From: Bilabrum cf. latius
Lineage: Eukaryota
DNA length: 64,000 nt
NCBI GenBank assembly: GCA_965178125.1
Contig: OZ237764.1
Span: forward strand, 1-64,000
Direction of reading: 5' to 3'
Shown here: positions 8,135 to 64,000 of the stretch, piece by piece
Numbering within the stretch: position 1 is the stretch's first letter
How the letters are laid out: each line of letters starts with the position of its first letter
Notes under the pieces: model-generated
The model's input: the letters and a program-made list of their open reading frames with translations, nothing else
The model's database searches: none
What the model was told of the DNA's origin: nothing
Translations under genes and position numbers: made by a program

Positions 8135-8719
8135 ATGGCTGGTGCATCGTCCGACCCAAAAGCTTCTGACACGGAAAGGACAGCCGTCGAATCGAAGCCA
8201 CAGGTATCTTTGCTATTTTCCATCGAGAACGGGATATTTAAGAAAGGAACCACTCCGCACGAGGAAGTTATGAAGAAATACTCAAAGATCAGCATGTGGG
8301 GCGACGCACAACTAGAGGTGTTTACTGGGGAGGGGTTTGATTCGAGGGATGCTTTCCTTGCAGCACTGGAGCCGTACATTAGCTGTCCCGATGAAGATTG
8401 GGCTGAGGACGCGAGGGATATCGATGTAGGAGACGGTGTCGGTTACGTTGCCCTAGAGACATTCTTGGAAAGATACGGTGAGTTCTGGGGTAAGCTTAAG
8501 GATGTTGAAACGGGCGAGAACGGCTCAATCGAAGGAGACCACCCGGGCCTGGCAGGTCTACGAGGCAACGCCTACAACATGTGGCTTCACTAGGACGACT
8601 CCATAGACGACTTGGTTCTCTCAAACACCAGGTAGATGCACGGAGACGGAAATTCGTATGTGCACGTCGCAAGAACCTCGACGGGTAGGTGGTACTGCTT
8701 CGCGTTCGACACGAGCTGA
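8135..8719 (+). CDS. Hypothetical protein of about 194 aa, with two in-frame TAG read as sense
   Basis: The ORF ending at TAG 8591-93 continues DDSIDDLVLSNTR[TAG]MHGDGNSYVHVARTSTGRWYCFAFDTS to TGA 8717-19. Confidence 0.6.
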
Positions 8720-9839
8720 TGCATGAGAACTGCCACTGGTAGTGATCAGGTACCTGATTGATCACTGATCGAATTTTCATTGCTGCAGTTGAGCACTCAA
8801 CTCAAATCAGTATCACGATGCGCACCACCACCAACACCACGCCTGGCACCATGAGCTATGAATGTGCACCACTGGCACCGGCATTGGCAGCAGCACTGCG
8901 ATCCCCTCGATCCCCGCCTCGAAGCCGATCTGCCTCTCTGCCACCGCCCGTGGCCAGCCTGCCGAAGGTGTTGAGCGCGGTGCTGCGACTGGCAGTTGTG
9001 CACGTTGGTCGCAAGCTGACGAAGTCAGCCAAGGCGGAGGACGGTGGGTGGAGCCGGCGGGGATAGCAGGCAGTGAGAAAAGGTCATGGAGGAGGAGGGG
9101 TAGTCACGGGTGGATCTGGAGGGGCGGACGGCTACTCCGGTCGATTTGCTTGCATGCAGCGGCGCAGTATGCCAAGGCAGGGTCAGGGTGACTGTGAGGG
9201 TGTGGATGAGGATGAGGGTGAGGGTGAGAAGCATGAGTGCATGAGTGATAGAAGGGAGTCAAGAGAGGATCCGTGCGTTGGCACAAAGGAGGGCTGGCGC
9301 CGATGCTTGTGCTGGTGCTAGCGGGCTAGACGGGTCACCAACCCTGCGAGCCAGGGCTCTCGTCGTGCGCAGAGCCTCCTGAAGTTGTACAGCAGCTCGT
9401 TGGCCCAGTTGCTAGCGCTCAGCACGCCCATGGGGGTCCTGCCAGCGCCTCTCCACGCAGCAACCGCTACCCATGATCATGAAGGCCTTGCGGTGGGTGC
9501 CGCCGTGGAGGCGGGCCAGGAGCAGCAGCAAATTCCCGGCGCGGCGGAGCTGGTCAACACATTCATGAGATAGCATGTCACAAGCTGGATGGAAGTTGGT
9601 ACACGCGCATACCGTTTCGGCGGCTAGCCACGCTGCGACAATCAGGCGGCAGGCCCGCTCGGGTTGCGTGCTGTTTCATTTCGCGTGTCAACGGTACTAA
9701 CCAAGACGACGTCCCGAGGAGGTGTCCAGGCGCTCACAACTCTCTTTTCTCAACCACCATATAATTATAGCACTGTAGTGATTACTGCAGCGGTGCTCCT
9801 GACATTCATTGCCTCCATAGCGCGCGTGTCTGAGACGCC

Positions 9840-12251
9840 ATGGATCAGTCGATTGCCTCTCTGTCAAAATCAACGCGTGGTGCCGGCTTTGGCTCCCCGA
9901 TTCGTGCTGGAGCCCCACCAGAAGCCAGTTTACGAGCATCCAAGCGGGGCGTGACAGTCGAGGAGCTGTTCACGACGCTGGCAGACCCGGCCGAAGACCC
10001 TAGGGCCCTTCGACAACTCACGCCGCGATCCGCCGAGGCATGCCTGCGGGAGGGCGTGAACCCGAACGATTTGATGCTGCGCGACATTGCCTATTTTGAG
10101 GAGCACGGCCTCGACCCCGCGGCTCAGGGGCTCCGGCACGAGATGTACAGCAAGCTGCGCCACGAGAAGATGAGGGCGGTGCGGGCGGCACGCGAAGAGG
10201 TAGTCCGCGAGCGGCGCGCGGAGAGGCGAAAGCGGCAGCGCGGTGCTGCTGATACGTCTCCGGGGGGCATGAGCCAGCGCAGCGGGTTCGGCGGCAGCGT
10301 TTCGGGCGGCGCCGCCGGTGCCGAGGACTTGATCGCGCAGGAGCAGCAGCGCCTGGAGCGGCTCAAGGCGAAGCAGGTGCAGGAGGTGGAGGTCATGCTG
10401 CAGCAGGAGATGCGCATGGCCGCGATCCGCGCCAGGGGGGAGCGGAAGGCGAAGGAGGACGCGGAGAGGCAGGCCAGGCGGGAGCGGGAGCGGGCTAGGA
10501 CGAAGGCCGCCGCCGCCGAGCAGGCCAAGCTCAAGGACCTCAAGCGGCAGATGCAGCTGGAAAAGGAAGAGAAAATCAAGCAGCGCATGATGCAGGCGGA
10601 GCGCGAGCGGCAGAAGAAGATAGCCCGAGAGGCACTCCGCAAGGAGAAGATCGCGCGCGCCCAGGCGGAGCGCAAGGAGAAGGAGCGCCGCCAGAAGCAG
10701 GCAGAGTTCAGGGCGCACACGGAGGCCATCTAGGCGCAGAAGCAGGCGGAGATACGAGCCAAGCTCACGGTGATGCAGCGCAAGGAGGCAGAGCGGGAGA
10801 GGGCCCGCCAGGACTCGCTCGCCAGGAGGCGCAGGGCCAAGGAGGAGAAGGCCATCGCGCAGCAGCGGAGGCTCCGGTCCCGGCTGCAGGCGGCGGAGGA
10901 GAAGGAGGAGGCCCGGAAGCGGGAGATCTTGATGAAGCAGCGGGAGGTGCGGCGCAGGCAGGAGGAGCGCGCGGCGGAGGAGGAGGCGGAGAGGGAGCGG
11001 CAGGCGAGGGAGCGCGAGCTGGAGGAGAAGAAGAGGCAGATCGTGCTGGAGCAGGCCAAAAAGGAGGAGGAGAAGAAGGCCGCCCTGCTGCGGGCCAAGG
11101 CCGAGGCGGAGGAGGAGATGGTGGCCAAGGCCAGGGCGGACAAGGCCAGGGAGGTGGTGCTGCGAAGGGAGCAGAAGCGGCTGCAGCAGCAGGCCAAGCT
11201 GGACGCGGTGGAGCGGCAGCGGCGCAAGGAGGAGTTCCGGCGGCTCAAGACGCTGCAGGAGATCGAGGCCAGGCAGCGGCGCACCGAGGAGATGGTGCGC
11301 CAGCGGCAGGAACTCTTCGACCTGCGCAAGCGCGTGGCCCGCGAGACGGCCCAGCAGCGGGAGAAGGTCTCGCAGGTCATGGAGGCGGCCCGCAGTGCAA
11401 AGAACTTCTCACAGGCGGCCACGCTGCTCAAGAAGGAGCTGGGCATCGATGTAGCGGCGGGAAAGCTGGCCGAGATGCAGGCCGCGGCCGAGGCACCGGC
11501 TGCGGGCGGCCCCAGCGACCAGCACCACCACTCCTCCCCCGGGTCGAGGCACGACCTGGAGGTCTCACCGCGCTCCGAGGCCGAGGGGGGACGCGGCACC
11601 GGGGCGGGCCGGGCCACCACGCCGTCGCACGCGCTCAGGGCGCTGGACGCCGTGCCCAGCCCGGGGGGAGACGGCGGATCGCACAGCGGCTGGTCCGCGT
11701 CGGGCGGGGTGGGGTTCCGCGGGAGGAAGAGCACGGGCAGGGGCAGGGGCAGGGGCAGGGGCAGGGGCGGCAAGCAGACGGGCCGGCCGGGGCACCGTGG
11801 AGGCGGCGTGGGCGTTCCGACGGTGAGCGTGGACGCGCGCGTGCCGCTGTCCGCCGGCGAGATCTCCTCCCTGGAGCAGCAGGAGAGGGCGGCGCAGAGG
11901 GACGCGGCCAGGTACACGGCGGCTGCCGCGGCGGTGGCGGAGGAGACGCAGAGGATGCACGGGCACAGCGGGGCAGGGGCGGGAGCGGGGGCGGGGGCGG
12001 GGCGCCCTGGGGCCGGGAGGAGCGCGCTGGCTGCTGCGGGTGGGAGCGTGCTCTCGAGCGGTGGGCCGGGGTACGGCGCCATGGTGTCTCCGTACGAAGG
12101 CGGCACGGGCGCAGGAGGGGCGGTGGCGTTGGGTGCCGGGGACGGGCCCCGCGGCCACGCTGGCGGCAGCTTACACGGCGCGGGTGGGGGTCATCATGAT
12201 GGCGGCGGGGTGACCATGCCTGCGTTTGCGACGGTCACCGGAGGCAGGTAA
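9840..12251 (+). CDS. Long coiled-coil protein of about 803 aa, possibly flagellar or cytoskeletal; one in-frame TAG
   Basis: ORFs 9840..10733 and 10770..12251 share a frame, and the E/K/R/Q coiled coil runs straight through TAG 10731-33 (EAI[TAG]AQKQAEIRAK); ends at TAA. Confidence 0.8.
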
Positions 12252-12315
12252 GGGGTATGGGCGCGGTCGGGGATTGTTTGCCAGACACGGCTTGCCGGAC
12301 ATCGTTCGAATCCAA

Positions 12316-12545
12316 CAATGCCCTCACTGAGGCCCACAATGCCCTCACTAGCCAAGAATGCCTCGCTGAGGCCCACAATGGCCTCACTGAGGCCCACAAT
12401 GCCCTCACTGGCCCAGAGATGCGATGCAATTCTGGGCCGGTGAGGCGATTCTGGGGAAGTGAGGCGATTTTGGGCTAGTGAGGCCATTGTAGGGCATTGT
12501 AGGCCATTGTAGGCCAGTGAGGGCATTCTGGGCCAGTGAGGCAAT
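12316..12545. repeat. Degenerate copies of the 19-bp satellite, with an orientation switch near 12425
   Basis: CCTCACTG(A/G)...C-type units at 12316-12418, then TTCTGGGCCAGTGAGGC-type units at 12430-12545. Confidence 0.75.
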
Positions 12546-12567
12546 TAAGAATGAATGTGGAATCCAA

Positions 12568-13538
12568 CAAGGCAAAAATGAAGGACGAGCCTTGAATACG
12601 GCGGCCGGGAATCGTGGCTCGCCCGCGCAGGTGACCCCAGCCCACTCCCGCCCCCCTCGGTGCGGGCAGCGGCAGGCACCTAGCCAGGCAGCCCGACAAG
12701 GCAAAAATGAAGGACGAGCCTTGAATACGGCGGCCGGGAATCGTGGCTCGCCCGCGCAGGTGACCCCAGCCCACTCCCGCCCCCCTCGGTGCGGGCAGCG
12801 GCAGGCACCTAGCCAGGCAGCCCGACAAGGCAAAAATGAAGGACGAGCCTTGAAATCTACGGCGGCCAAGAATCGTGGCTCGCCCGCGCAGGTGACCCCA
12901 GCCCACTCCCGCCCCCCTCGGTGCGGGCAGCGGCAGGCACCTGGCCAGGCAGCCCGACAAGGCAAAAATGAAGGACGAGCCTTGAATACGGCGGCCGGGA
13001 ATCGTGGCTCGCCCGCGCAGGTGACCCCAGCCCACTCCCGCCCCCCTCGGTGCGGGCAGCGGCAGGCACCTGGCCAGGCAGCCCGACAAGGCAAAAATGA
13101 AGGACGAGCCTTGAATACGGCGGCCGGGAATCGTGGCTCGCCCGCGCAGGTGACCCCAGCCCACTCCCGCCCCCCTCGGTGCGGGCAGCGGCAGGCACCT
13201 GGCCAGGCAGCCCGACAAGGCAAAAATGAAGGACGAGCCTTGAAATCTACGGCGGCCAGGAATCGTGGCTCGCCCGCGCAGGTGACCCCAGCCCACTCCC
13301 GCCCCCCTCGGTGCGGGCAGCGGCAGGCACCTGGCCAGGCAGCCCGACAAGGCAAAAATGAAGGACGAGCCTTGAATACGGCGGCCGGGAATCGTGGCTC
13401 GCCCGCGCAGGTGACCCCAGCCCACTCCCGCCCCCCTCGGTGCGGGCAGCGGCAGGCACCTGGCCAGGCAGCCCGACAAGGCAAAAATGAAGGACGAGCC
13501 TTGAATACGGCGGCCGGGAATCGTGGCTCGCCCGCGCA
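12568..13538 (+). repeat. 129/132-bp tandem repeat (7 full units plus a partial) containing the 3' end of the tRNA-Gly gene
   Basis: Units start at 12568, 12697, 12826, 12958, 13087, 13216, 13348 and 13477; each carries TACGGCGGCCGGGAATCG or a close variant; a degenerate extra copy lies at about 13778-13872. Confidence 0.92.
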
Positions 13539-13649
13539 TTGAACCCCGGGACGGGCGGGGGACGGGCCCCGCGGCCGCGCTGGCGGCAGCTTACACGGCG
13601 CGGGTGGGGGTCACGGTCACCGGAGGCAGCTAATGGGTGTGGGTGCAGC

Positions 13650-13770
13650 ATGGCCTCACCAGCCCGGAATGGCCTCACTGGCCCAAAATGCCCTCAAGGG
13701 CCTACAATGGCCTCACTGGCCTACAATGGACTTACTGGTCCAGAATCGCCTCTCTGCCAGTGGCCCAGAA
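13650..13770 (-). repeat. Degenerate 19-bp satellite copies in reverse orientation
   Basis: GGCCTCACTGGCCCAAAAT, GGCCTCACTGGCCTACAAT and CTGGTCCAGAATCGCCTC units. Confidence 0.7.
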
Positions 13771-14808
13771 CCGGCAGTCGTGGCTCACCCGCGCAGGCAT
13801 TCCCAGCCCCCCGGTGTGGGAAACGGCAGGCACCTGGCCAGGCAGCCAACAAGGCTAAATGAAGTTCGAGCCGCATCGCTGGCCCCACAGCTGCCTCACA
13901 ATGGGGGGCCCGCTTACCCTGCCAGCAGTGCCTAGCAGTGTCCTGCACCAGTGAGTGGTTTGCCTAGATCTATTGGCAACGCCACTTTCGCAGTGCCCAT
14001 GCTGTTGCATTCTAAATTTGCGTGCACCCATCCTGAATGAATCGACGACTTATTGACGACTACTAGCATCCTAGCCGGCGGCTTTTCGCGCACCCTGATT
14101 GCAAAGTCGAGCCAGCACTAGCATGCCAGTAGTTGGATGCACAATTTCTTCAAGAGTCCGTGCCAGGTCCGTATCGCATGATCGCCATACATTGGTATTT
14201 GTGTGTTGATTGCAATAAAGTCCTGGCTTTATGCGTGGCGCCAGTCGCTTTATGCATAGCCGAACGCTGAATGTCGGATGCAGCAAAACATTGTCTTGAT
14301 GGTGCGCCTGCGAGCGCCAGTATTCCAGCCAGGCGGCTGGAAAGTATGGTGTGTAAAGATCTACCTAACGCATGTCTATGTAAGTATCCAGAAGTTTCAG
14401 CTCAACCGTCATCGAACCGGCCATCAGCAATGGTTGAAGCACGAGACAAGATAGCTTGCGGTTGACCACGAGTACCGAGCGTCATCAACAGGCTAATATG
14501 GAACGAGGTGCAATGCGTGGAATCAAGAAGCCGTAGCGAGTCCTCCTGAATCCGACGGCCGATGCCTGAGGTAGATCTAGCATCAATCGCTCGCGCGAGA
14601 GGCAGGAAGCCTTGTTAAAAGCTTCCAGCTTCCGTCGGTGGAATCATGTTATCATTGTGATGCACTTCGACGGGCCTACGCCGTCTTTGGGACTAAAGTT
14701 CGAACGTCCCCTTGCGACCATCCGCTGGAGTGAGCATCTGCGCAGCGCTGCTTCGATGCCGCGACAAGCTCACATTTCCAATCCTTCGGCTCAAACAGAA
14801 GCCAAGCG

Positions 14809-17800
14809 ATGGAAAGTAAGGAATATACAGATGTCGCTGTCGGTGCTGCAGCAAGCTATCCAGGGGCGAGAAAGCGTGGCCGAGCAGAGATGAGCAGTTG
14901 CACTTCTGGTGCGAGCATTGCTAAAGTCGATGGAATGGAGGTGAGCGCGATACTACGATGTGCGCATGCAATGATCCATTTTATAACATTTGCGATGCTT
15001 TTGGCTGCACTCGAATTGCGCTCCTACTGTACGATCTGGACCCTGCTGCCGTTGCAGGCCGACGCCGAGCACCGCGACGCGGCGCAGCCATTGCACACGC
15101 CAGCAAGAACAAAGCGAGCGCGAGTCGCCGCATAGACGCGAACACATTTACCCTAGCATGCTGCTTCGCGCGCATCGCCCGGAGTCGTAGCCTAGGGCTA
15201 GCAGCTCTCGGTTGCGAAGCCTCAAGCAGGTGCCAGCGTCGGCGCCGAGCGAGCAGGGAGGCGCGGGGACAGGGGTGGCGAGAGTCCATGGAACCACAGC
15301 GCACCGATCGGTCCCATGGGTAGCCTCGCATCGAGTTTCGCGAATGACGGCCGTCTCCAGCACGCTGCCGAGATGCCGGCGAGATCCGGAGACGTGGAGG
15401 CCGAGCGCGCCGAGCAGATGGCCCTTCGAGAGGCTTCGGGACTGCTGCCGGAGAGCTACGACATGGAGGCGCTCAAGACCGAAGGGGAGGACGAGGACGA
15501 GGACGAGGACGAAGACGAGGAAGAAGGAGGCACGGGGCCGGCGCTCCGCAGCGACTCCATCCGCGGGGGGGTTTGCTTGCGAGCCATGCGAGGGGCGCAC
15601 AACGTGCGGGATATCATGACTTCCACCCTCACCTCGGTCGGGTCAGCTCCAGGAGCGGAAGGCACTCTTCAGTCCAGGCGTGTCGAAGCCGCTGGGAGCC
15701 TGTACGCCACCTCCGCCGGGCTCGAGGCCGGCACGGGCGCACTCGGTGCGAGTAGGCGCGCGTTTACGTGCCTTCACTCGCACGGACCGGACGTCCTGCG
15801 GGCGGCAGGGGTGGAGGATGAAGCTGCCCTCTCGTACAGGAACGAAAATGTGTACCGGGCTTCCAGAGGCACGCAGCGCGAGGCGCACAAGGACTACTGC
15901 GGGATTCTGTCCACCGGCAGCTTGGTGGACGGGATGTCCGGCCTCATTAGCCACGAGGGCGGTGCGAAGGCGGGGCAAGAGTTTTTCGAGGCCTGCCTCC
16001 CGATCGATGATTGCGTTTCCAAGGCGCATCAGTCCCTCCAACTTACCTCGGCGTCCGTTCGGTCGAGGTTCCCTCGCCGCTTCGGGCCAGGACAGGCCCA
16101 GCTGCAGGCAGTCTTCTTTCTTCCGCATGTGTATAAGGAGGAGGACTTACTAGTCATCCGTCGGTCCCTCGAGGGCCAGCCGCAGCCGCATTCATCCCTT
16201 GCGGTACGAGACGTATTTGCGCAAGGTGTGGGGGGAGCTCGAGTCCTGCACCGCGCGGCGACGGATGAGTCCCTGGTCGAAGCCATCCGCTTCCACCGGC
16301 AAGAAGGCCAGGAGCTGCAGGCTAGCGGGGGTGCAGCTGTATCCCACAGCGCTTCGTCATCGTCATTGTCGTCATCATCAGCTTCATCTGCTCCAGGTCC
16401 TGTTTCATCGTCATAGTCTGCTTCGGGGTCTGCTCTAGGGCCTGCCTCAGTGCCCGACGTGTTGGTCATCGATACGTACATTACGCAGCAGACGGTGTCA
16501 ACAGCTTCACAGGTGCGGGCTTCGAATTCCGGAGGTGCTGCTGCGCAGCACGCCAGCAGCACCTCTGCCTCGTCCGCACTGTCGTCGGCTGGTGCCGGTG
16601 CAGGTGCAGGTGCCGGTGCAGGTGCCGGTGCAGGTGCAGGTGCAGATGCTGGTACTGGTGCTTCGACAGCCTCGGATGGTGCAGCTGTGCGTGGCAGCGT
16701 TCGAGCTGGACCCGCATCGTACGGATCAAGCGATCGGCGGGCACCGATCATGTCCACGGCCGCCGCGGTAGCTGCAGGGATGGCTGCTGCTCGTCAGATG
16801 TACTCAGGTATTGGGGGACCTCGCTGCAACCCGCTTGTCACTGTGGTCTACCCTAGAATAGATGACTCGCCGATGTCCCTATCTTCGAGGGTGGTCCTTG
16901 CCCCGGTCGCGGAGGCTCACAAGGAGCCTGGTGCTAACTTGTCGGAACGCAGGGCGTACCGGCCCGACAACTCCCCTGGTGTTGCTGGTAGCTCGGCATC
17001 AGGGGCTGATCCCTGGATCCGGAATTCAGCTGAAGCCAGCACATACCGCTTCACTGAGCTAGAGGCCTTGCTGCGGGCATCAAGTGACGGCGCAGGGAGC
17101 GACGCTCGGCAAGCAGGCAATGGCTGTGCAGCCGAAGACTCCGACGACAAAGCTACATTCACGCACGACGCAGCCGGTGCGAGAAGTGCAGCGATGCATG
17201 CATCGCTTGGGAGCGCCGCTGCTGACAGCAGCATCGACCATGCGAACGAGATACCGACAGGCCCGCCGAGCACAGCTGAGCTGACCCGTGCCCTGCTCTC
17301 GCAACTCGGCCCTGGAAACCCGGAAGCTGGCCGGGTTCACAGCAATGCCGACGGGGCCACCGAAGCCGCGCTCAACGAGGTCTTCGCAAAGAACAGAAAG
17401 CTGAGACGTGCAGCGAGCAAGCTGGTGTCCAAGACCACGCCGGCAGCCGCTGCCTACTTTCTCCTTGTGATGCTGCAGGGGGGAACTGGTGCACGCAAGT
17501 CTATCCGATGGGTGAGGGCGCAGATGCATGCGCAAGAGTCTGGAGCATTCCTCGCTGATGCAATGCTTCCTTACCCACTGCTAGTTCGCCGACCGCTCTC
17601 TCGCTCCCTTCTGTGTCGCAGCTTGTGTATCGAGGGTTCCTGTCGTACTTCAGGCGGCTGATGTAGTACTACTATGCCTAGCAGGCTGTATCACGCAGCG
17701 TTCACGAGACTCGCCTGTTCCAGCGGATTCACAGAAGCGGCGGGCTGCGCGAATCAACAGTCTGCAAGCTCGAAGCCGTTGCCTACTGCCTGGATCAAGA

Positions 17801-23588: not shown

Positions 23589-23591
23589 TTT

Positions 23592-23662
23592 TACGGCGGC
23601 CGGGAATCGAACCCGGGGTGCTTCGATGGCAACGAAGCATTTTACCACTAAACCACCGCCGT
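23592..23662 (-). tRNA. tRNA-Gly (anticodon GCC), intronless, no encoded CCA
   Basis: Folds as acceptor ACGGCGG/CCGCCGT, D arm GTTT-AGTGGTA-AAAT, anticodon arm CTTCG-TTGCCAT-CGAAG, T arm CCGGG-TTCGATT-CCCGG, discriminator A. Confidence 0.93.
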
Positions 23663-25460: not shown

Positions 25461-25494
<34 letters not shown>

Positions 25495-45553: not shown

Positions 45554-45627
45554 TCTCTGTGGACTTGGATGTTAGCTAACAGAATTGGGTAGAAGAACGT
45601 GATGCATACGCAATCGTTTTTCTCGTC

Positions 45628-50700: not shown

Positions 50701-53700
50701 GGAACAGGCGCGAAGTGGTGCGAGAATTGCTGGACGGCAAGCATCCAGTTGCAACCAAAGATCGCAGGAGACGGTCTCGCATGGACGATGAGTTGAAGCG
50801 GGTCGGAGCTGAGGTGAGCCAGCAGGTTGAGGCAGCTCAAAGGGCAGAGGCCTCAAGGCAAGGGCTCGGAGACAACGATATGCAGCCCTTCCTGGTGTCG
50901 GGTCGCCTCGGGGATGGAGATCGAGACGATAGCGGTGACACGACGCGCCTCATGCTCACAACAACAAATCCGCTTCCAGTCGATGCACGGGTGCCTGCAG
51001 GAGCTGACGCACTTATTGCATACGGAGCTAGCCCGAGCAATGCCCGAGTATTCATGCGTGGCGTAAGCGTTGATGGCCAGCCACTACCTCGCGGGCGCGC
51101 TCCCCACGCTGCTGATAGGCTCCCGTACTAGCGGTTTCGTTATGATGAGGGAACAGAGCTTCTTTACCACGTCGTTCGAGGACCAGAGTATCGGGTCACT
51201 CTGGACGGAGCCATCGATGCCAAGTATGCCGAGGACGCCCCGAGGAAATCGGGTCTAGGAGCCATGTACCGGTGCGTGACAGGCGCGCCGCGGTATCCAG
51301 GGGGTCGAGGGGCTTCTCCGTATGCGAGTGGTAGGCCGGTTGACCTCATGTACGTGCCTGGCATGCACGAAGACATGCATGGCATCGAATCGCAGCTTCG
51401 GTCGCTTGCATGCAAGCTGCCAGGGTGCCGCGTGCTGGTGATGCACCTGCCTGGAATGGCTGGAACGACGTGGGACGAGTGGCCGGACTATTTGGACGCA
51501 AGCAAAGCGATTGAAGAGGTGGGATCAACTGCCGAGAGGTATGATGCCCTCCTGGAGCGATAGATGGCGGCTCGGGGGTCCGAATCCAAGGCGAGCAGCA
51601 GAGACCGCCAAACCGCCAAACCTGGTCAACAGAAGGGAGTGGGCGACAATCCATCTCGCAAACGGTCGTATCGCCCTCTAACCCCGCGGTTTCATAGTCT
51701 TTGTCTGCACGCACTCGTCCAGCACCTGAGGACCACGGGTGAGTGGGGGCCCAAGTCCGTGTAGGATCCACGCACTGATGCGTTCGAGAAGACTAGGGGT
51801 CGAATTGGCCGAGACGTAGTCATCTGTGCATCTGGAACCAGTACGCCTGTCGCTAATGCTTATGTGGGCGAGCACGTGTGCAAGCGCTCTGTGGACCAGC
51901 AGGACAGAATCATGGCGTCTGCATTGCGGTGCAACGTGCTAATCAACCCATTCGCTCACGTCAACAAGTCCCTGGCGCGGGTCCTGGAGGGCGTGGAAGA
52001 CTCGCATGCGCCTCTCGCAGAGCTTGCAAAGCTACCACAATAGCAACCTAGGCGCTCTTCTGTTGCGAGCATCGATTCGACTAGTCCTGCTGCATTGAAG
52101 GCAGCAGTTGGAAGGCGATCGTCGGCCGGCGGGCGGCGGCCATCGATTGGTGGCGCTTCGGCAGCCACGGGAGCCACCGACATGGGCTCCGTTGCGACTC
52201 GCAGGACAGCTAGACGTGCTAGCGTAGTATCCAAGAAGCGCATCAAACGAGAGGTCGCTATGAGGAAGCGACTTGGGGTTACCTTTGAGCAGCATCCGTA
52301 CTACCGACCGGTGAAGGAGTCTAACCACGACAGTGCAGACGAGTCTGACAGCAGTGATGGGGGCGAGGACGAGGATAGGAATGGGGCGGCAGGTGATGCA
52401 GACTTGGCAGCATACGACTTTGACGCAGCTGTAAGGCGGTTGGAGCAGACCCAGAGCAAGGAGAGCAGTGCTTCTCGTCAAGCTGACAAGGAGGTGGATT
52501 GGGTCCGGTCTGCTCCGGACGCCTCTGGCTTGTTCGGCGGTCCAAATGGCAGCAGCCATTCGAGTAGCAAACGAGGCTAGTCAGCGGAGAAGCTATTGGC
52601 GCTTCGGCCTATCAGGGCGCATGCTATCAGGCAACTGTCTCGCATGCTCCTGGGCCCTTCATTTGTGTCCGTGATGGGCGAGCGCATCGCTCTCAAGGAG
52701 CTCTTCCGAAGGAATCCACCGCTGGGTTACGGTGATCCGTTCTTAGATGATGGTCTCGCTGCCATGGCACGCGGGCTTAGACGAACGCGGGATCAGCGAC
52801 AGACCCTCAAGTAGCTTCCAATTCCAGTCCTTGTGCTGGCGGGCAGTGAGGACGCATTCGTGGTACCACTCCATGCGTACAACATCGCTCGCAATCGCGG
52901 GTTGCAAGGCGGAGGGAGTGGGCGTGTGAACGATGAGGATAGCGGTGGCTTCAATCTAGGTGAGTTCCTTCAGGTGGCTGGCTAGCCCCCCAGGCGGTCG
53001 TGCCTGTCGATGTACCTCTTGGACAACGATGGTGCATCGCAGGGTGCGGTCGAGGGGTCTGTCAGCGGCAGTCCAGACACATCCAAAGTTGACGAACAAG
53101 GAGATGCGCTAGATAGACTTGAGTAGACGCAGAAAAAGCTTGCTAGCGAGTCTGGGGGTGGTGTTGATGGAGGCACGAGGGTTGGCACCGCCGCGATTCG
53201 AGACAGTGACTTTGATCTGTACTCGTCTGAGCATGTTGGAGGTGGTATCACTGGCACGCTCTACCCCACTCACGTTGCCTGGCTGAAGGCTGGACATTGC
53301 TTACTATTGGAGAGACCGGGATTCTGCATGAGGGTGCTCGAGGCAGCGCTGGTTGGACACAACCAAGACAGGCCCAGCACGCCCCCGCCACGCGGTTCAC
53401 TGTTGACTGCAGAAGAACGAACCGCGATTGGAATTCTGGGTCCAGAGGACAGCAGCGTGGGTTATCTTGGCGAGAAGCATGACGGCGCAGAACCAGATGT
53501 TTCCGTGTCTCAGGCACCTAGGCGCGCGTATGGGACTGAAGTTTACGGGCAGACCACGGATCGCTTTCTGTCAGACACTCAAGTAGAGGCTGCTGGTACC
53601 CGTGGAATACTCAAGGGTACCAGAAGGGATACCCCTGCAGGCACACCCTTCAGTCTCGCGGAGGATGACATGACTTGGGAGTCTGGCCAGGCTGGGCAAT

Positions 53701-56700
53701 CGGTGCGTTTCGGCTCCACGGCAGGTGCAGCATAGTACACCTAGTCTTCGGTTGGCTCGGCTCAAAGGCACAACGATTTTGGTATCGCTGGTGCCGATGA
53801 GCAGGTAAAATCTGGAACTGCAGCTGGGAATTCATCTGAAGCACAGAGTAACGAGGACGACCCTGCCGTTGCCCGAGTGCGGGCTGAGCTTCGGGCCCGC
53901 GGACTGTCGGATGAGGGCACGGAGTTCGACTTGCTGGCTCGGCTGGAAGAGGCGCTGGACAGCGAGATGCAGACTGCTGCCACCAGGACCGACAAGGCCA
54001 GGAAGGACAGGGTGTCTCGGCTGCAGAAGACGAAGCGTATTGAACTTGAGGCGCAGGCGCGCTCGAAAGAGTCGACGCGTTAGGAAAAGCAGCTGCTGGG
54101 CACAGAGGCTATGCAGGCGAAACAGGCCATGGACCGACTGCACCGGGGAGTGGAAAACGAGCAAGAGGCCCACGAGCGAAGACTTATGGCTGTCGAAGAC
54201 TCGATAGCTCGGGATGTTGCTGCCTAGCTAGCTGCACGGGAGCGTCGCGAGTAGGAAGACAAGGAGTAGCAGGAGCGTTTCGCGGCTGCACGTGCTAGTG
54301 AATAGGAGTCTGGTGGCTAGCTGGTTGTGTTTGACCCACTCGGGGATGCCGACCAAGCCAAGGCGTTCGAGCGCAGGCGGCAACTGCGGCGCGCAATGGA
54401 GCTCAAGAGCGAGAGGGCCGTTCGTGCGCTGGAGGTCAGGCAGCGAGTGGGTGGGCGCATGCTTCAGCTGCGGGGCGAGGACCTGGGCTACGCAATGACG
54501 GACGCCGAGGAAGAGGTAGAGGTGGAGGCTCGGGCGGAGCGAGACAGAGCTATGGGCAGACTCGAGTCATGGCTTGCTGAAGAAGAGGCGAAAGAAGCAG
54601 GCAGCGGCGATAGCGTCCCCGAGGAAGAGCGCGGAATGGATCGCAAGGGAAGGCGGGCGCTCAAGGTGCTCCGGAGGCAGGCACGGCTGCACGACACGGT
54701 ACTTAAGCTTGCAGCTGGATCTGACCGCCTGATGCAGCACTGCCAGTAGCTGCGCTTCAAACGGCGAGGCGTAGTGCGCCGATGGAAGCTTTTGTTCGCT
54801 CGTCAGAAGGAGCAGCAAGATTAGACGCGACGCAGGCAGCGTGAGGTGTCTGCATGTGACCGCGCACTTGCACTTGCCTAGAAAGAAAAAGATGCAGTCG
54901 AAGCTAGCCTGTAGTAGGGAGGTGGGAACCGGGTATTGTAGCAATAGATGCTGCAAACGTCTTCTGCAGAAATCGAGCAGCTGATCAAGTATAAGGACGA
55001 GCAGCGGGCGTTCGTCGACGCTTTGGTCGACAAAGGTAAGCTCCTGCAGCTCGAGCTGGAGGACTCGACCGCCGCGGCGCAAATGCTCGTCAACTCGAGC
55101 AATGCCAAAGAGGGCGCTCTTACCCGCATGCGGATTGTGATGAGCAAGCTTGTCAGATAGCGGCGGATTGCTCGTCGTGATGCGCAGGAGAAGCAAGACT
55201 CTGCCATGCAAGAAGCTGCGCAGCTCGTTCGCAGCTTGGCTTCCCTGAAAGCCCGGAAGCAGGCGATGCGGTCGGAGCTGAGCAGATGCAAGAAGGAGAA
55301 GCAATCAATGTGGATCGACACGTCCATCTGGCAGCGGACAGGCCAGCGTATCCGTCGCTCTGAACTCAAGGAATACCTTCGCAGAGAGCTCAAGAAGGTT
55401 CGCAATGACATTGGAATGCAGACCCGTGACCTGCGGCACAATCGTGCTGTTGCCCTGGAATGTGATGCGGTGCTCTCTGCCGCTCAGGAAGACGTGTCTA
55501 TGCTAATCAGCCGTTTGCGGCGTGTTGTGGAATGTATCCGTGCCGGCCCCTCTGGTCCACTGCGACTGCCGAGTGCTCTGGAGATGCAGGCCTCTGCCAG
55601 TGGTGCATCGGGCGGTGGGGGGGAGCAGGACCTTCTCGACGAGCTGGAGGCCCAGGTGGCGGGGGGGCCCGGCACCATGGGCAGCACCATTGGCGCTAAA
55701 TAGACTGTTCCTCGCGCTACCCCATACGGCCCGACGCTCTCGGTTGAAGACCAGGAGTAGCAGTGGACGGCCAAGTACAGGTCTAGCTGGGAGGAAGTCG
55801 ACTTGCTGCTGCATGAAGTCCAGAGCAGTGGGGAGAGAATCAGTGAGTTCGGGGCCTGGTATGCTAAAGTGAAGGACGCGCCCCCACCTGTGCCGACCGA
55901 TGAAGCAGCCGGGGGAGGTGCAGGCGGCGAACTGACGGCGGAGGTGCAGTAGAGCTTGCTCAAGGCTTCTGGTGAGGAAGCAGGCGATGCTGGCCCGGAG
56001 CAAAGCGAGGAGGAGGCCGAATAGGACGCCAGCATGTTGAGTAGACCTTCCACTGGGCTGATGAGCTCTACGTCCTAGGCGCTAGTTGACCGGTCGGCAT
56101 CGGCACATGCCGAAACCCTGGTAGGCTTCAGCAGGGGCCCACAGGGTGTCCCGGTTGTCGTGCAAGACCAAACCAAGGTCGCAGCCGCTACACGGTGGAA
56201 GCCGGCTCTCGACCGTACTTTGGAAGAGAAGAGGTGGGTGGCAATCGACAAGCGCATGATGGGTTAGTTCTATGGTAACCTCACCGAGGAAGACCAGCAG
56301 GCATACGCGAGCGATCCTGCTTACCAGTGCCACCTCCCGAGGGATCTGCTGCTTAGGATCGCCGCGTTGCCGTGTTCTCCTGGGATTGCATCGGCATTCA
56401 TTTCGACCGAGGCCCAGATGGAGGCCCATGGGCTCATCACAAAATTCACACTGGGCCAAGGGGAAGACCGAGAGCACTTTCTCGACCAGCTGTCCGGAGC
56501 CAGGGCAATGGCAATGGCAGCAGTGGCCCGGGGATTCGTGGCCCGATCCAAGATGCCACGGTTTAGGAGTGAGGAGGAAAAGGAATGGGTGGCAGCCGAT
56601 CGTGTCCTACGGCCGCACTTATACATTGGCGAAGAAAATGAGCCTGGCGAAGACCGCGAATCCGACGCTGGCGAGCCTGGCACCGATGTGTCTGGGCCTG

Positions 56701-59700
56701 CAGTCAACATGGTGCGGGAAGGCATCCAGGATTTTGTGGAGTCTGGTGGCCCTCTCATTCTCGAGGTCGCAAACAGCGACGATGAGACAGAGGGCGCTAA
56801 GAACCTAGTGGAAGGAGATGGAGATGGTATTAGCGATAGCGGCTCGGAAGAGGATGGTCTACATGCGAGCGGTGCGGCTGCAGCCGATGGAACGAAAGGA
56901 GCTGCTCGAAGGCGAAGCGAGTCCGGACAGCAGGTGCTTTCCGGTGGAACGCGCAGACCCACTGGACGGGCAATGTTCAAGCGCCTGAGTAACTTTAAAG
57001 AGAAGCAGGACTTGTAGGCCGAGGCTGCCAAACGCAAGCTTGCTCGAAGCAAGAAACGGAAAGCTGCATTTGAGTTCTTCGAGGCCACAGATGAGGCCCA
57101 GGGCAGAGGAAATATTGCCGAGCAGACCTTTTCAAGCATAGATGATGTAAGGAGGCGCGAGTTTTTGATGAGGCCCCCTGGTGGAGCACCCCTCGCGTAC
57201 TCGCGAGAACAGCTGCTTGAGCTGCTGCGGACGCCCCCTGGCCAGCTGAAGTCAAAAAGCGAGCAGCGGCTACAGATGCTTCTAATGGCATATGGTAGTG
57301 ATGGCGGGCGGGCCATTTTCGAGATGGCGTCACGGTGCCACTATGCAGTCGTGCGAGGGCTAGCTGAGGTGGCCGAGGCGATGCAGGCTGTGCAGGAACG
57401 GAGGCTGCCGCTGCAGTTGGCAGACTACGCCGAAGAAATGTGCATTGCCGATGCCGATGGGTCGCGCCTTAACGTGGCAGCTGTCGCTATGTAGGCGTGC
57501 CAAGGGCTGGTGCTCGTGCGGTCTAGACACTCGGCAACGCTGCTGTCTGTGCATGGTGCCACCGTGGAGGCCGGTCAGGTCGCAGAGCACTCCTTCGTGG
57601 TACCTGGATCGATCGCAGATTGCGTGGGCCACGGTCCCAGAGGATGGGGCGGGAGCCGGGGCAATGCTACCGCGCGACGTGGGTATGGACACCAGGGCAT
57701 CCGGAGCGTGTTTGGGGTGTCCCTGGACGAGGTACCCGCCGAGCACGCTGCTAGCTTGATCGAAGCTGCAGCTGCTGCTGGGGTCCATGGCACAAACGGC
57801 GCCCGCGCGGAAGGGTCGCAAACGGCCATGCCGGCGTGGTAGGGCAGCATCAATGCTGGTTTAAGCATGGCTTCAGGCACCACACCCTTCGCGGACACGG
57901 ACGAGGTGCCAGGCTTGGGTCGAGTGACGTGGGCCGAGAACTCGGTGAATCGGCAACAGCAGCGAAGTGCCCTGGCTCGCCTGGAGCTGGCCCGCACCAA
58001 AGCGCTGGAGGGCCTGGGCTTGCCAGTGTCCCGCAGCAGAAGGCGGGAAGAGATGCAGCGGAAGGTGGCAGAGCAGGAGGCTGCCATTGAGGAGGCAAAG
58101 CGCGTGAGCCCAGCGGGTTGGGTCCAGTCATCTGTAGCGAGCGCGCGTGGAGAGTCTGCTGATGCAGCGAATGCAGTGGATCGTACAGGCAGCAGCACTT
58201 CCGAGCGCGACAAGTTTGACAGGGACGTTTAGAATGCAAGTCGGGTCAGGGGATTCCTTCGACCTAGTGATATGGATGGGACAGGCTTGGCGGCGCTTCA
58301 GGCAGCCCGTCCAATTGGGAGCACTGGCGATAAGCTGAAGGAAATGGCCAGGTAGGCCGGGTCCAGGCCCGCTGAAGCTGGGGTAGGGGCGACTTCGGGA
58401 GCTGTCAACGCTCTGCACATCACTGGGTCTGCTCCATCGGGATAGGACACCGCTAGAAATAGCTCCATGGACGCTCCCCGTGCCACAACCGCAGAAGAGC
58501 AGCCTCTTGCAATGCCCACGAGTGCCCTGGAGGATGCTCGCTGGGAGAAGCAGCGCTTGGCGGAAGAGGCTCAGCGTAGTGCGCGCGAGCGAGCTGGTAC
58601 CCCTGGAACCCATGATAGTGCCGCACCATCCTAGGGGTTCGGCTAGGGCACGCCCGAAGAAGAGGACGGCGAGGAGGTTGACCCAGCACTCAGGCCCCGC
58701 ACCAGATATGAGCACGAGACGGGTGTACCTGGTGTGTTGCCTCAAGCGCTTGATATATCTGTGACCATCACATTCCATGGGGAGTTCCTGCGGACAGAGT
58801 ATGTCCCAGCCCGGCTGTAGGGAGTGCTGTACAGGGAGCCAATGTGCGGGGAAGTGGCCACTGACCTGAGGGAGCCGGTGGCATATCTGGGCGAAGACCA
58901 CGCCGACGAGCTGGACAAAATGCACGGCGATTCAATACTGATAAGGCAAGGGAATCCCATGGAAGACATGCCAGGGGGACCCGCTGCCGTGTATACCGCG
59001 CGACAACGTGGGCGACCACCCGTGCATCCCAACATGTCCTCGCATCTTGCACCAAGCGCCTAGTCCAGCCAGGCAGAGCGTGGCAGTGCGGTCAAGACCC
59101 CTCGGGAGAGGCATGCTCGGTTAGAAGTGCCGCCGTAGGAGAGATTAGCAGGATAGATGTGGCCAAAGCTTCGAATGGGAGGGCCTGTGAGCGTTGGAGT
59201 TGTGCCTCTATCTGGAGAAGCCACACAGCTATTGCGTGCCGTGGCCGGCCCGTCCAACCACGAGACGAAGGCTTACGACCCATCGAAAGGGGCGCAAGGC
59301 GCCAGCGTGCTCGACGCGAGTAGCCAAGGGCCCGATTGGGGAGGAGCTGCCTCGCGCGCCCAGGCATCTTCGGCATAGCACGGCCTCGCACTTGCAGCCA
59401 GGAAAGCAGGGCCCGCCGAGCTTGGTGTAGCCAACGGACAGCTGGGAGCCTCGAATCAAATCAGTAGCAGTGCTGTCTACACTGGCCCGAGGGTCGATGT
59501 GGCAGGTACCTCGCTACATGACCTCCAGGTGAGCGGGGCCAGGACTGGCAGCATCGCCACAACAATCGTGACCCCCGAGCAGCTGCCTCCACTCGCTCGG
59601 CCCGTGCCGCGACTGCCAGGGGTGCCATCTGACCAAGTAGTGGCGCAAATGCGTTGCCCAGTAGGCTGGTCGTCCTGGTAGGAGTGCAAACCAAACACAA

Positions 59701-62700
59701 CCGGCAGCATCGGGAGGTTGGTGATCCGACACCGCCCTCTGACTCTGCCCGTGATGCCGGGCAAGTACACGGTGGTGCTCAAGGGGGTCACCAAGGCGAA
59801 CTACTCTGTGACTGTCTCGTGCCGGCTGGCCTACGCCGCCCGCGATGTGGTTGAGGGCTGCGTGCTGAGCTCTGACAAGAAGGAGAGACGACTACCTGCA
59901 AGCCGAAAGGAACTGGAAAGCATTGCCAGCAGCTACCGGCTTGGTGCCAGGAAGCGGCATATTGTCCGACAGCTCATCAACCAAGTCAATCGCAGAATGA
60001 CTGCCAATGTACAACAGCAAAGCTCACTGCGAGAGGCGCTTGACAAAGGCCGGGTGCTTGTGCGGGATCTAGGCAGTGATGACGAGGCAGACTCAAGCTC
60101 AGACGAAAGTGACTCGTCCGATGACGGACTGCGTGCACGGGCGGATAGTGATGCCAGCAGTGATACGAGCAGTATTGCCAGTGGGTCATCTGCTGGGACC
60201 AGCGACAGCGGGTCCTCGCGCGGATCGTCTGGCACGGGAAGTGATGCGTCCTCTGCCGCTTCTGGAAGCACAGGCAGCAGCGGCAGCTCGGGCTCAGGCT
60301 CATCGAGCGGTTCCGATGCGACTGGGTCGGGGGCAGGTAGTCAATCGGGCAAGCCGCTCACTGCGGAGGACGTGCGCCGGAAGATCGAGATGAATCGCAT
60401 CAAACAGGAGCGCAGACGCATGCAGTTGGCTGATGTTACGGAGAGTATGCGGGGCCGCATCGTGCGCCGCATCTAGAAGCTGGAGGAGAGGTTTGCCACG
60501 CTGGCGCGCTCCCTTGGCACGCGCTCGGACGAGATGCGGCAGATCGAGGAGGGACTCATGGTGCTGCGAGAGGCGAGACATGACCGATAGGCCGAGGTGG
60601 AGGCGCTCGTCTCTGGCATTCGCGAGTTCCGCAGGTACGTGCCTGCTGCTGCTGCTGCCCTTCGAATCGACGCGAGCGGTTCAGTGGCGATGCGCAAGGA
60701 GAGACGCAGGGCCGCAATGGAGCGACTGGGGTTGACGGAGCTACTAGGGCGCGCCCCTGCCTCTTCTATTGAAGAGCAAGTGCAGGAGACGGTCAGCAGG
60801 TCGCAATCGATAGCAAGCGGGAAACGATCATCGCAGGGAGGCAAGAGTCTAGGGGGACTGGCAGCTGCAGAGCAAGCTACCCTGCAGCAGCAATCCAAGG
60901 GCGATGCCCGCGCGCTCGTTCTCGCCCACACCACGCAAGGGCAGCTGGCAGTGCAGCAGCAGAACAGAGATGATATTCTGGAGCGGTTGCGACCATCGCC
61001 ATCCGACGTGGAGTACGTGCGGCTTGGCCCCTGCGTGATGCAGTACTTGGTGCGGCAGGACGAATCCACCATGTCGAACCCAGCTGTGACTCCGGCGATG
61101 GTGGTCCGTCGGAAGCCCATCAGCGAGCTCACCTATGAGGAGGCGGTCTGGTTGGCAATGGACCGGGTGATGCACCCGGAGGAGCACGAGCTGGATGACC
61201 AGGGACAGGCAGAAGATGACGAGCTGGCAGGCTTGGTGATGCTGGCCCCTCCCAACGGTGAATCGCTCAGCGCCGGACCCGTCCGTAGGCCACAGTCCCG
61301 GCAGCCCACTCAGGCTGGTGGGCTAGACTAGAAACCCCGCGGTATCCTCGCCCGGATTCAGCGGGATAAGGCAGCCAAAGGTAAAGCTAAGATCGCACAA
61401 GATGCAATCTAGCAGCTGGATTCCGTGTATGACGCGGGTGGCGGTCCACCTCCTGTGCCCAAAGACGAGGCGATATCAGAGGGGCAAGGTGGAGATGGTC
61501 CGGCTTCCGGTGCTGGAGCATCTCCGGATGCAGCTCCGCAGGCACGAACCAAGGACGAGCTGAATCCCGTGGAACCAGCCGTAGTAGGGGGAGCCAAGGG
61601 ATAGGGGCTTCGTGGAACGGCCGCTGATTTGTACGGGCAAGCCAATTAGGGTCGCATTTCCAAGGAGGGTCGTCTTGCGGGGGCCACTTCCAGCGCAGAG
61701 GCTGACTCTGGTGGCGCGGCTGGTAGCGCAGCGCCCAGTAGCAGAACGGAGGCCCGCAGAGATATGAAACTCGTGGGCAGAAACCCGAGCGCCAACGCCC
61801 CGGTGCAGGTGCTGGACCCTCATCTTCAGACGAGCACCACGCTCACTGGACATTTGGGTGCAATCCGCCTGCTGGAAGTGACGGGCGGGTAGATGCCGCC
61901 GTGTCCGTTCAGCAGAGTTGAATTACGGCGCATCCTCACGGCGCCCGTCACAACGCTGGCCCCAGTCGAGCGGGAGGCCAGGGACCTCCTCAACAAGTAC
62001 CACGACAGGCCCCCGCCCCGTGCCGAGGACGCGACACTTGGGCTGCAGCAGGGGCCACAGGGAAGAAGACTAGGCAGTGCAGCCTCGAGCCGCGTGAATC
62101 TCCGAACGCCAAAGACAGCTGCCATCACTACGCGACAGCAAGCGGCTGGCGGCACAGCGGGGGCTATTTTGCCGTACGGTCAGCCGCAAGGCGGCGGTGA
62201 GCACCCAGATGGGGTCGTGCTGACACCCGCCCAAGAGGCTATTCGACAACGCAACCTGCAGCTGGAGTCCAGGCAATCTGAGCAGCGATCCGATGGTGGC
62301 GCCGGCATGCAGTACCACCGTGCTGGGCCAGAATTTGCCGTGGTGCGGTCGGCGGTGCCTATCCCCCGGCACGCGCCCGCCAAGCTTAAGCACCTGCTTG
62401 CAGTCCGCGCCGTTGCCCTCACCACCCGCTGGGAGGCTTTTCTCGAGAAACACCGCAGCGAGACATCCAAGACGGACACCAAGGGCCGCAAACTACAAGG
62501 AGGCGCTGCTTGGGGCGGTTCCACGGAGGTGCAGGGGATTAATGTGATGGAGCTGTCGGACGTCGACCAGCGGGCGAGAGACCTTCTGGATGAATTAGAC
62601 AGGGCAAACGGGTGTGCCAAGCCAACGATGGACTCGGCCGTGCTCTATGGTGTGGAGCAGCGGTACCAGACGATCACCCTTCGTGCAGAGCTCGAGAAGG

Positions 62701-64000
62701 AGCTCGACCTAGTGCTGCAACGGCAAGTGTTGGAGAGGGAGTAGGTCGAGACGGCACTGCAGCTGGAAATTGCAGACACAAACGCAGCCAAGATCAAGAA
62801 GCGGGCTGAGCAGCAGGCCAAGCGGCTCGAGGCAGCCCGCGCAGAGGTCCTAAAGCAGATGAAAGACGAGGACGAGGGCAGGGTCAAGGCAGTGGCTGGC
62901 GAGCTGGAGGCCATGAATTCGACGTCTGGTGGACTGCTTTCGGACGACGAGCGCGCCAGGAATGAGGGTATCCAAATTGCCATCGCAAGGGCCAAGGCAG
63001 AACGCGCGAAACTCAGGGGACACGACGCCAGCCTGGCGATGGAGGAGAAGGAGGTGGAGAACAGGGCTAAGGCCGAAGAGCGCGCCATCAAGGAGCAGCT
63101 GGCTCTGGATCTGGCTGGGGTGCGAGGGGGTGCGCAGGAAGACGAGCAGGACCCAATCCAGGAAATCGGGGGGCTGGCCAAGTGGGGTGCCCCCGACAAG
63201 CCGCTTACCCCGCGCCGAGCCAGGGAAATGCGCATTCGCAAGCGGGAGCAGGCAGAGGAGCAGCGGCTGCAGGAGCAGTTGATGGAGGATGGAGACGAGA
63301 TGGACTCCTAGCAGAGAGCCATGGTTAGGGGCAAGTTGAAGACCATCCGAGACCGCAGGCGAGCCCAGGCTTAGACGATGCTGCGCAAACGCAAAGAAGG
63401 AGCGGATGGTGGCGCGGGGGGCAATGGCAGCGAAGGCACGCCGCACGACGACGATGAGGAAGAAGAGTCCAAGCGTGTCGTGCTGCCGCCCTGGCAGTCC
63501 ACTGAGGACGTGGTGGGGCTCAAGGCGCGGCAGGAGGAGCTCGAGCAGGAGCTGCTACGAGTGAGGACGCTGCCCGAGGAGATCGAGGTCGTGGAGACAC
63601 ACGTCCTTCTCTCGGTGCTCCGAGGAGGTCGTGCAAGAGTGACCGTCCAGGATGCAATCATGGAGTTGGCCACCGAGGTGTAGGACGTCCGAAATCGGCT
63701 GCGGCTAGTGGATCTGGACCGGGAGCTTCACGCGGCCTATTCGTCCAAGGAGGCCAGCATCGAGACGACGGCCATGCACGGATACAAACAGACCGCCTGG
63801 AGGCTCGACGCTATCGCTGCACTGGAGCGGGACAGCAACCGCATCGTGGCACGGCAGGTGGCGCTAGGACTGGTGGACGATATTCTCGAGTGGATGCTGG
63901 AGGGCTGGTACTTTGGGGAGAGGGAGTCCGCCGCTGCCGTGTCTGGGTTCGTGCCCTCTCTGCAGAAAGACAGGCCCCTGCGGCCGTACGAGTCTGCCTC
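47701..64000 (+). CDS. Giant protein of more than 5,400 aa, running off the window: EF-hand-like, alpha/beta-hydrolase-like, SAP-like and long coiled-coil regions; possible first intron 47732-47808
   Basis: 28 listed ORFs from 47793 to 63683 are in one frame and all end in TAG; the gaps I translated contain only more TAG, no TAA or TGA; motifs FAHFDPTGRGWVD, PVLVLAGSEDAFV...AGHCLLLERP, VRAELRARGLSDEGTEFDLLARL. Confidence 0.85.

Follow-up and report, generated by a model that had tools for sequence, protein, structure and literature searches.

The first 64,000 nucleotides of contig OZ237764.1 (assembly GCA_965178125.1), hereafter the window, raise the question of how the triplet TAG is read in the eukaryotic genes located there. 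Under the standard code these genes present themselves as chains of same-frame open reading frames (ORFs) broken by TAG. On the strength of four independent lines of evidence, namely spliced transcripts, a conserved column in the proteasome subunit RPN6, near-identical relatives and codon pairing with a syntenic locus, UAG is very probably a glutamine codon in the nuclear code from about position 7950 onward, with UGA and UAA as the only terminators (NCBI translation table 15).

Both the frame counts and the lengths of the ORFs that open when TAG is taken as sense agree with the pattern of TAG-broken chains, which had been pointed out in the initial annotation. Within positions 7951–64000, the standard code allows ORFs of up to 796 amino acids (aa). 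This maximum is unchanged (796 aa) if TAA is translated, rises to 883 aa if TGA is translated and reaches 5,421 aa if TAG is. In descending order, the ORFs obtained with TAG as sense begin with 5,421, 1,668, 1,080 and 975 aa. The largest (47736–63998, plus strand) continues past the end of the window and contains 65 TAG with neither TAA nor TGA, and the second (40547–45553, plus strand) contains 15 TAG. In the two alternative frames of 47736–63998, TAG occurs 46–47 times, TAA 14–23 times and TGA 80–133 times; based on this off-frame rate, the probability of passing 5,421 codons without TGA or TAA is about 1e-55. Altogether, 12 frame-anchored coding pieces with 11,484 codons contain 104 TAG, no TAA and no TGA, which corresponds to a UAG frequency of 9.1 per 1,000 codons and to about 19% of the glutamine-type codons (327 CAG, 112 CAA and 104 TAG in the approximately 11,500 coding codons).

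The residue decoded by UAG is indicated by RPN6, a subunit of the 26S proteasome lid encoded on the minus strand (28364–29816). The gene contains two in-frame TAG, at positions 29315 and 29207, and its translation aligns to solved RPN6 structures with E = 8e-98, spanning both of them. In the column of the first TAG, glutamine is present in 113 of 120 homologues (the best 120 of 1,115 homologues with E up to 1e-20). The second TAG is situated in a variable column and corresponds to glutamine in P0001, a relative of 91% identity. Alignments with RPN6 chains of the PDB, which are indecisive on their own, place the first TAG opposite Gln, Glu and Glu, and the second opposite Glu, Leu and Arg. Short public proteins matching the giant frame point in the same direction: 11 fragments with 88–99% identity cover nine distinct TAG positions, eight of which are occupied by Gln and one by Glu. 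Pooled with P0001, the close relatives thus display Gln at 9/10 TAG positions. Nine of the fragments can be aligned to their own last residue; the end coincides with a TAG of the window in eight cases and with Gln in the ninth. Since the fragments terminate at such positions, the close relative, as judged from its sequences, uses in-frame TAG as well, at partly different sites.

A more distant comparison is provided by the metagenome locus L002, positions 1–17501 of which correspond to window positions 23577–46983. Order and orientation are kept for at least nine protein genes and a tRNA-Gly gene, the shared syntenic genes being those for serine hydroxymethyltransferase (SHMT), a Nudix-like protein, a TBC protein, an EGF protein, a C2-WW protein, RPN6, inorganic pyrophosphatase, a POLR3C-like protein, tRNA-Gly and a 641-aa ORF. 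For codon pairing, 13 frame-anchored coding pieces were considered, 12 of which have a counterpart in L002 and one of which, the SET piece, has none; off-frame and antisense matches were dropped. In the seven pieces with at least 57% identity, TAG stands opposite CAG or CAA in 11 out of 15 cases, the others being two Thr, one Ser and one Asp, and ordinary CAG and CAA codons of the window are paired with a Gln codon in 70% of cases in the same pieces. In the five poorly conserved pieces, TAG is opposite a Gln codon in 4/24 cases, and the corresponding value for CAG and CAA is 22%. One position is TAG in both the window and L002. Evaluated with observed substitution profiles, the log-likelihood over 39 TAG pairs is –89.8 for Gln, –124.8 for Ser and –128.8 for Glu; Leu falls outside the best six residues. 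Columns aligned to TAG are hence enriched for Gln in homologues and relatives alike, and the glutamine assignment, which the initial annotation had regarded as most likely, holds for the RPN6 column, for the close relatives and for the pairing with L002, where TAG behaves at the rate of true Gln codons. Judged by these alignments, UAG acts in evolution as a Gln codon, just like CAG and CAA.

TAG is not evenly spread among the genes. Both SHMT (38358–39722; G+C content at third codon positions, GC3, 0.86) and the main exon of the pyrophosphatase gene (26972–27571) are devoid of TAG, and each of these genes contains one TAG in L002. The absence of UAG from two GC3-rich and presumably highly expressed genes offers no more than a hint that UAG is less favoured.

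As to termination, 15 of the 16 ORF ends in the window are TGA and one is TAA. This matches the earlier description of gene ends that are mostly TGA, once TAA and never TAG, with the proviso that ORF ends were defined by TGA or TAA, so that a terminal TAG could not show up in the count. The nine orthologous ORFs of L002 comprise seven with TGA as stop and two, RPN6 and the EGF gene, with TAA. The TAA of RPN6 follows directly on the sequence FERAKGLS, a C-terminus shared with window RPN6, which in turn can be aligned through the final residue of the Drosophila RPN6 chain. These data support UGA (mostly) and UAA (rarely) as terminators, as in table 15.

Among the alternatives to table 15, a dual and context-dependent UAG, which would encode Gln within genes but, as in ambiguous codes, also stop translation at the ends of some of them, survives best, yet we consider it improbable. 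In its favour, the ORFs were delimited in such a way that a terminal TAG would be passed over, and 3'-untranslated regions (3'UTRs) can be very short, as deduced from two observations. One contig covers the Nudix-like transcript and displays a T run, representing poly(A) in minus-strand orientation, from position 36731, only 8 nt past the TGA (36728–36741), and only some 75 nt separate the neighbouring convergent genes at 45553 and 45628. Short 3'UTRs go with ambiguous codes in other lineages. However, none of the C-termini that could be checked, a handful comprising RPN6, SHMT, the Nudix-like protein and the GR tail of the C2-WW protein, ends at TAG; all end at TGA or TAA. In the Nudix-like gene, where a TAG precedes the stop by ten codons, the window reads DGPP-TAG-GGGHGDSGDH-TGA and L002 reads DGPPQQDSGDH-TGA. 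Comparison of these C-termini indicates that the TAG is read through and again matched by Gln, and that the peptide behind it (DSGDH) is conserved. Moreover, the base following TAG is distributed as after sense codons in general, and UGA and UAA are never found in frame.

A code of the table 6 type, in which both UAA and UAG encode Gln and UAA is merely scarce owing to the high GC content, is very unlikely. It is true that UAA is scarce everywhere in DNA of 61% GC and that UAA and UAG usually change together, according to PMC11687900. However, if the ratio of TAA to TAG followed that of CAA to CAG (112:327), about 36 in-frame TAA would be expected in the roughly 11,500 codons, as opposed to none observed, and no ORF is lengthened by taking TAA as sense. 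In addition, the less GC-rich relative (0.54) ends both its RPN6 and its EGF gene in TAA, in the case of RPN6 exactly at the conserved C-terminus.

Finally, in-frame TAG could be apparent rather than real, whether through errors of base calling or assembly at CAG, RNA editing, splicing-out or pseudogenes. This bears on the transcripts. The examined stretch is contained in 16 public runs from 11 studies, four of which (X5–X8, from three studies) were compared with the window over positions 26900–46800. In contigs of X6, X7 and X8, which come from two studies, 12 gaps of 87–286 bases are skipped; GT..AG or CT..AC bounds each of them, and from these joints the three runs are inferred to contain RNA. 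A thirteenth joint (TG..GT; 20 bases on one flank) appears to be spurious and was set aside. Run X5 contains the same DNA in unspliced form, in pieces of 7,875 and 7,607 bases. Among the pieces listed, none of the four runs shows a base difference or an indel relative to the window; one contig has a loose end, presumably Illumina adapter sequence. Inside the listed intron-skipping pieces lie 30 of the 33 in-frame TAG of the stretch examined, and the remaining three (35138, 37591 and 34052) fall outside the listed contig pieces and are uninformative either way. In X6, a single contig without differences spans 40586–45599 and thereby every one of the 15 TAG in the large SET exon. Upon removal of the observed introns, each of eight genes yields a single frame from ATG to TGA. 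In mature transcripts of common housekeeping genes, UAG therefore occupies in-frame positions.

Retention of TAG in intron-skipping contigs without differences excludes splicing-out, editing and read error, the very circumstances that the initial annotation had named as able to overturn its proposal. C-to-T errors at CAG would indeed look like TAG for Gln, and the chimeric left end of the contig (see below) demonstrates that the assembly is not flawless. However, the absence of base differences holds for the contigs of all four runs, which stem from three studies, two other separately assembled lineages have TAG at partly different positions, and pseudogenes would have gathered TGA and TAA too, neither of which is seen; an artefactual origin is accordingly hardly credible. 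Codes in which all three stops are sense codons, of the Condylostoma, Blastocrithidia or Amoebophrya type, are ruled out by the lack of any in-frame TGA or TAA.

Decoding of UAG as Gln would call for its own tRNA-Gln, with a CUA anticodon, and for an eRF1 that has lost recognition of UAG. Leaky readthrough would not suffice: with 90% readthrough per codon, only about 0.1% of ribosomes would finish the frame with 65 UAG, and the presence of 65 UAG in one frame therefore demands near-complete decoding.

Several points weigh against the assignment of UAG to Gln under table 15. Neither ARAGORN nor Rfam detected a tRNA with a CUA anticodon in the window, in L002 or in the related metagenome locus L001, the only tRNA found being tRNA-Gly(GCC), and an eRF1 gene is absent from the window and from the loci retrieved for the relatives. 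The library type of X6–X8 is unrecorded, none of the runs is catalogued as RNA, and an automatic guess classified these runs as possibly RNA, with X6 as probably DNA. Some partners of TAG are residues other than Gln (one Glu among the close relatives, and 4/15 and 20/24 cases in L002), and CAG and CAA show equal rates. Two of the domains, preSET_CXC (23.0 bits, cut-off 23.3) and NUDIX (20.7 bits, cut-off 21.1), score just below the curated Pfam cut-offs. Lastly, 16 ends defined by TGA or TAA leave room for a UAG that is not exclusively internal.

The code proposed here is itself known; the lineage in which it occurs appears to be new. In PMC11687900, a paper of 2024, reassignment of UAG alone to Gln is described for the fornicate Iotanema spirale and the ciliates Protocruzia tuzeti, Hartmannula sinica and Trochilia petrani, reassignment of UAG alone to Leu for an uncultured rhizarian and some phyllopharyngean ciliates, and to Ser for Scotinosphaera. 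This handful of lineages agrees with the rarity that had been attributed to UAG-only changes at the outset. For the joint reassignment of UAA and UAG (UAR) to Gln, the same paper lists many ciliates, Ulvophyceae, Hexamita, Streblomastix and Amoeboaphelidium, with no stramenopile among them; Streblomastix is also covered, as UAR for Gln, by PMC10120064. Two further papers concern organelles, namely UGA for Trp in the Phaeocystis plastid (PMC12480563) and code 4 in the mitochondrion of Cafileria (PMC6723347). PMC13768787 is a general guide on the culture of protists, and nothing on the code was found in PMC12614181.

As in Iotanema, Protocruzia, Hartmannula and Trochilia, UAG of the window encodes Gln, UAA and UGA are stops, and UAG is used synonymously along gene bodies. 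In contrast to Iotanema and those ciliates, the host is probably no ciliate and not obviously a metamonad. It has telomeres of the TTAGGG type on a long chromosome, a GC content of 61% and a bicosoecid as the nearest named RPN6. The main stop differs too, being UGA here and mostly UAA in the ciliates with UAG for Gln (PMC11687900). With table 6 lineages the window shares the capture of a stop of the UAR pair by glutamine, presumably via a change in a tRNA-Gln anticodon; unlike in these lineages, UAA stays a stop. Uncoupling of UAG from UAA is a feature common to the lineages in which UAG encodes Leu or Ser, but the residue is different, and both Ser and Leu fit the codon pairing far worse than Gln. 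TAG is likewise read as Gln under code 15 in crAss-like and Lak phages, where it represents a viral recoding of late genes in bacteria, whereas the genes considered here are nuclear, contain spliceosomal introns and lie beside a telomere.

No report of UAG for Gln in a stramenopile or comparable flagellate was found in the open full-text literature, supplements and subscription-only papers aside. We regard the chances as about even that the window represents an independent and unreported origin of UAG-only reassignment to Gln, in a GC-rich protist clade that is allied to bicosoecid-like stramenopiles and comprises at least three lineages. The initial annotation had suspected an undescribed independent reassignment; this stands insofar as no earlier report was found, while the type of code was already known and the absence of a report from this group is unproven. 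If such an origin is true, UAA and UAG have been uncoupled under GC rather than AT pressure and with UGA as the dominant stop, which would make the organism a natural test case for the capture of UAG alone. A further case outside ciliates and metamonads would also be an independent data point on the co-evolution of eRF1 and tRNA-Gln and on the need for AT pressure. The question is directly testable, as several public runs already contain DNA and apparently RNA. In practical terms, annotation with the standard code shatters the genes of this organism, and its public proteins are fragments ending at TAG. Contigs of the organism can be mis-binned with bacteria, as illustrated by the chimeric left end.

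Among 80 RPN6 loci taken from metagenomes as a control, 77 lack any in-frame stop within the RPN6 match, and L001 and L002, with two TAG each, are the only ones containing TAG. Both are syntenic with the window, have a GC content of 0.52–0.54 (0.61 in the window) and encode RPN6 with 79% identity to that of the window; they too contain in-frame TAG, even in SHMT and pyrophosphatase. The use of UAG for Gln is thus, on these sequences, common to at least three related lineages, namely the organism of the window, the relative with 88–98% protein identity and the relative with 79% identity in RPN6. The metagenome scan with RPN6 returned only the relative at 79% and not the window's own locus, and an RPN6 alignment search of assembled genome contigs found no relative. 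The remaining metagenome locus, L074 (1,350 bases, 0.37 GC), contains one in-frame TAA inside the RPN6 match and may derive from a ciliate or another organism that reads UAA as sense.

With respect to the host, the best non-self matches of RPN6 are 58–59% identical, the sole named one being Bicosoecida sp. CB-2014, and identity to RPN6 of oomycetes, labyrinthulids and plants amounts to 51–53%. A quick maximum-likelihood RPN6 tree with 63 rows places the window together with P0001 in a clade of five rows, with a support of 97 in the Shimodaira-Hasegawa-like approximate likelihood ratio test (SH-aLRT). This clade is nested in one of 21 rows (SH-aLRT 85), of which Bicosoecida sp. CB-2014 is the only named member. 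Oomycete and labyrinthulid RPN6 are located on the opposite side of the tree. Comparisons of SHMT do not place the host, an atlas search leading only to generic SHMT clusters and a library of representatives at 50% identity to a nameless best match of 67%, and the window contains no rRNA. Telomeres of the TTAGGG type and a long intron-bearing chromosome speak against a ciliate. From the single RPN6 tree, the probability of a stramenopile host can be put at a little over one half. The stramenopile appearance noted previously is hence retained in part: the nearest named RPN6 is that of a bicosoecid, but other stramenopiles are found elsewhere in what is a single-gene tree.

Positions 1–6560 of the window have a GC content of 44–45% and contain tightly packed minus-strand ORFs, two out of five of which encode a Por_Secre_tail, a sorting domain of type IX secretion (E = 1.1e-13 and 1.5e-06). 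By GC content, tight gene packing and this domain, the minus-strand segment is bacterial-like, foreign to the eukaryote and Bacteroidota-like. It is followed by a telomere repeat (CCCTAA, 147.7 copies, 6566–7451) that is oriented as at a left chromosome end, by a subtelomeric tandem repeat with a unit of 53 bp (8.6 copies, 7454–7911) and, between this repeat and unique DNA, by a short TTAGGG-like run in the orientation opposite to the telomere (7911–7945). Because bacterial DNA sits beyond a telomere of left-end orientation, the contig is a chimera, and the findings on the code concern the eukaryotic part only. This part encodes eukaryotic proteins and comprises 56 kb with an overall GC content of 61%, varying from 57 to 76% along its length. 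Its eukaryotic nature had been recognised initially for 8135–64000; the start is corrected here to about 7950, behind the telomere and the 53-bp repeat. A 36-base piece of the subtelomeric repeat had no match in assembled genome contigs. Among the 11 public proteins matching the giant frame, P0123 (327 aa, from a contig of 1,155 bases) consists of a giant-frame fragment with 99% identity fused to a bacterial zinc finger region of the DksA/TraR type and is another assembly chimera of eukaryote and bacterium.

The genes of the eukaryotic part were assigned by Pfam searches on translations with TAG rendered as X. On the plus strand, a coiled-coil, GR-rich ORF without Pfam family (9834–12251) contains one TAG and is the sole ORF of the window ending in TAA. 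Two large tandem arrays follow, one with a repeat of 129/261/390 bp and matches of 97–99% (12567–13538) and a degenerate one of about 128 copies of a 19-bp repeat (20680–22982). These arrays stay open in all frames and therefore generate spurious long ORFs. The only tRNA gene of the window, tRNA-Gly (GCC), is located on the minus strand at 23591–23663 and is also present at L002. It is followed by the POLR3C-like gene (23865–26723, plus strand; POLR3C_WHD, E = 2.6e-08), which contains three in-frame TAG and ends in TGA. The inorganic pyrophosphatase gene (26969–28151, minus strand; E = 2.4e-32) has introns at 27574–27695 and 27855–27993, and its spliced coding sequence (CDS) encodes 302 aa, contains one TAG and ends in TGA. 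The RPN6 gene is interrupted by one intron (29368–29513) and gives rise to a spliced CDS of 426 aa with TGA as stop, in which PCI (E = 6.7e-16), RPN6_N (5.7e-12) and RPN6_C_helix (4.4e-06) are identified.

Further along, a C2-C2-WW protein with a GR-rich tail is encoded on the minus strand (30970–33645; intron 33231–33327; C2, E = 4.4e-32; WW, E = 1.5e-12), with five TAG in the CDS and TGA as stop. The Teneurin-type EGF repeat protein on the plus strand (33560–35041; introns 33686–33776 and 34155–34262; EGF_Teneurin, E = 2.6e-17) has three TAG in its spliced form and a TGA stop. Three minus-strand genes follow: a RabGAP-TBC gene (35102–36700; intron 36448–36534; E = 1.4e-05; three TAG after splicing; stop TGA), the Nudix-like gene (36728–38100; intron 37623–37908; four TAG in the spliced CDS; stop TGA at 36739–36741), an exon of which had no PDB match at E up to 0.1, and SHMT (38181–40300; introns 39723–39824, 39875–39982 and 40035–40147; E = 4.8e-165), the spliced product of which comprises 504 aa with no TAG and with TGA as stop. 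A CXC-SET (EZH-like) protein is encoded on the plus strand (40300–45599; intron 40462–40585; SET, E = 4.4e-14; stop TGA at 45551–45553), and its spliced CDS of 1,678 aa contains 16 TAG, 15 of them within the large exon. TAG-broken domains had been reported initially for RPN6, POLR3C, C2, SET, EGF and Nudix; the first five are recovered by Pfam, and NUDIX, like CXC, remains narrowly under its cut-off.

Beyond the CXC-SET gene, the minus-strand ORF of 641 aa (45628–47553) contains seven TAG, ends in TGA and belongs to no Pfam family. The giant open frame on the plus strand, with at least 5,421 codons, likewise matches no Pfam family. It is rich in coiled-coil-like stretches of Glu, Arg, Lys and Ala and in runs of Ser, Gly and Asp, and its close relatives exist only as public fragments. 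Long Gly-Arg tracts (GRGRGR) are found in the otherwise unrelated C2-WW (30970–31100), CXC-SET (45400–45550) and coiled-coil (11700–11800) proteins, and the GR tail of the C2-WW protein is kept in the relative (L002, about 9350–9424).

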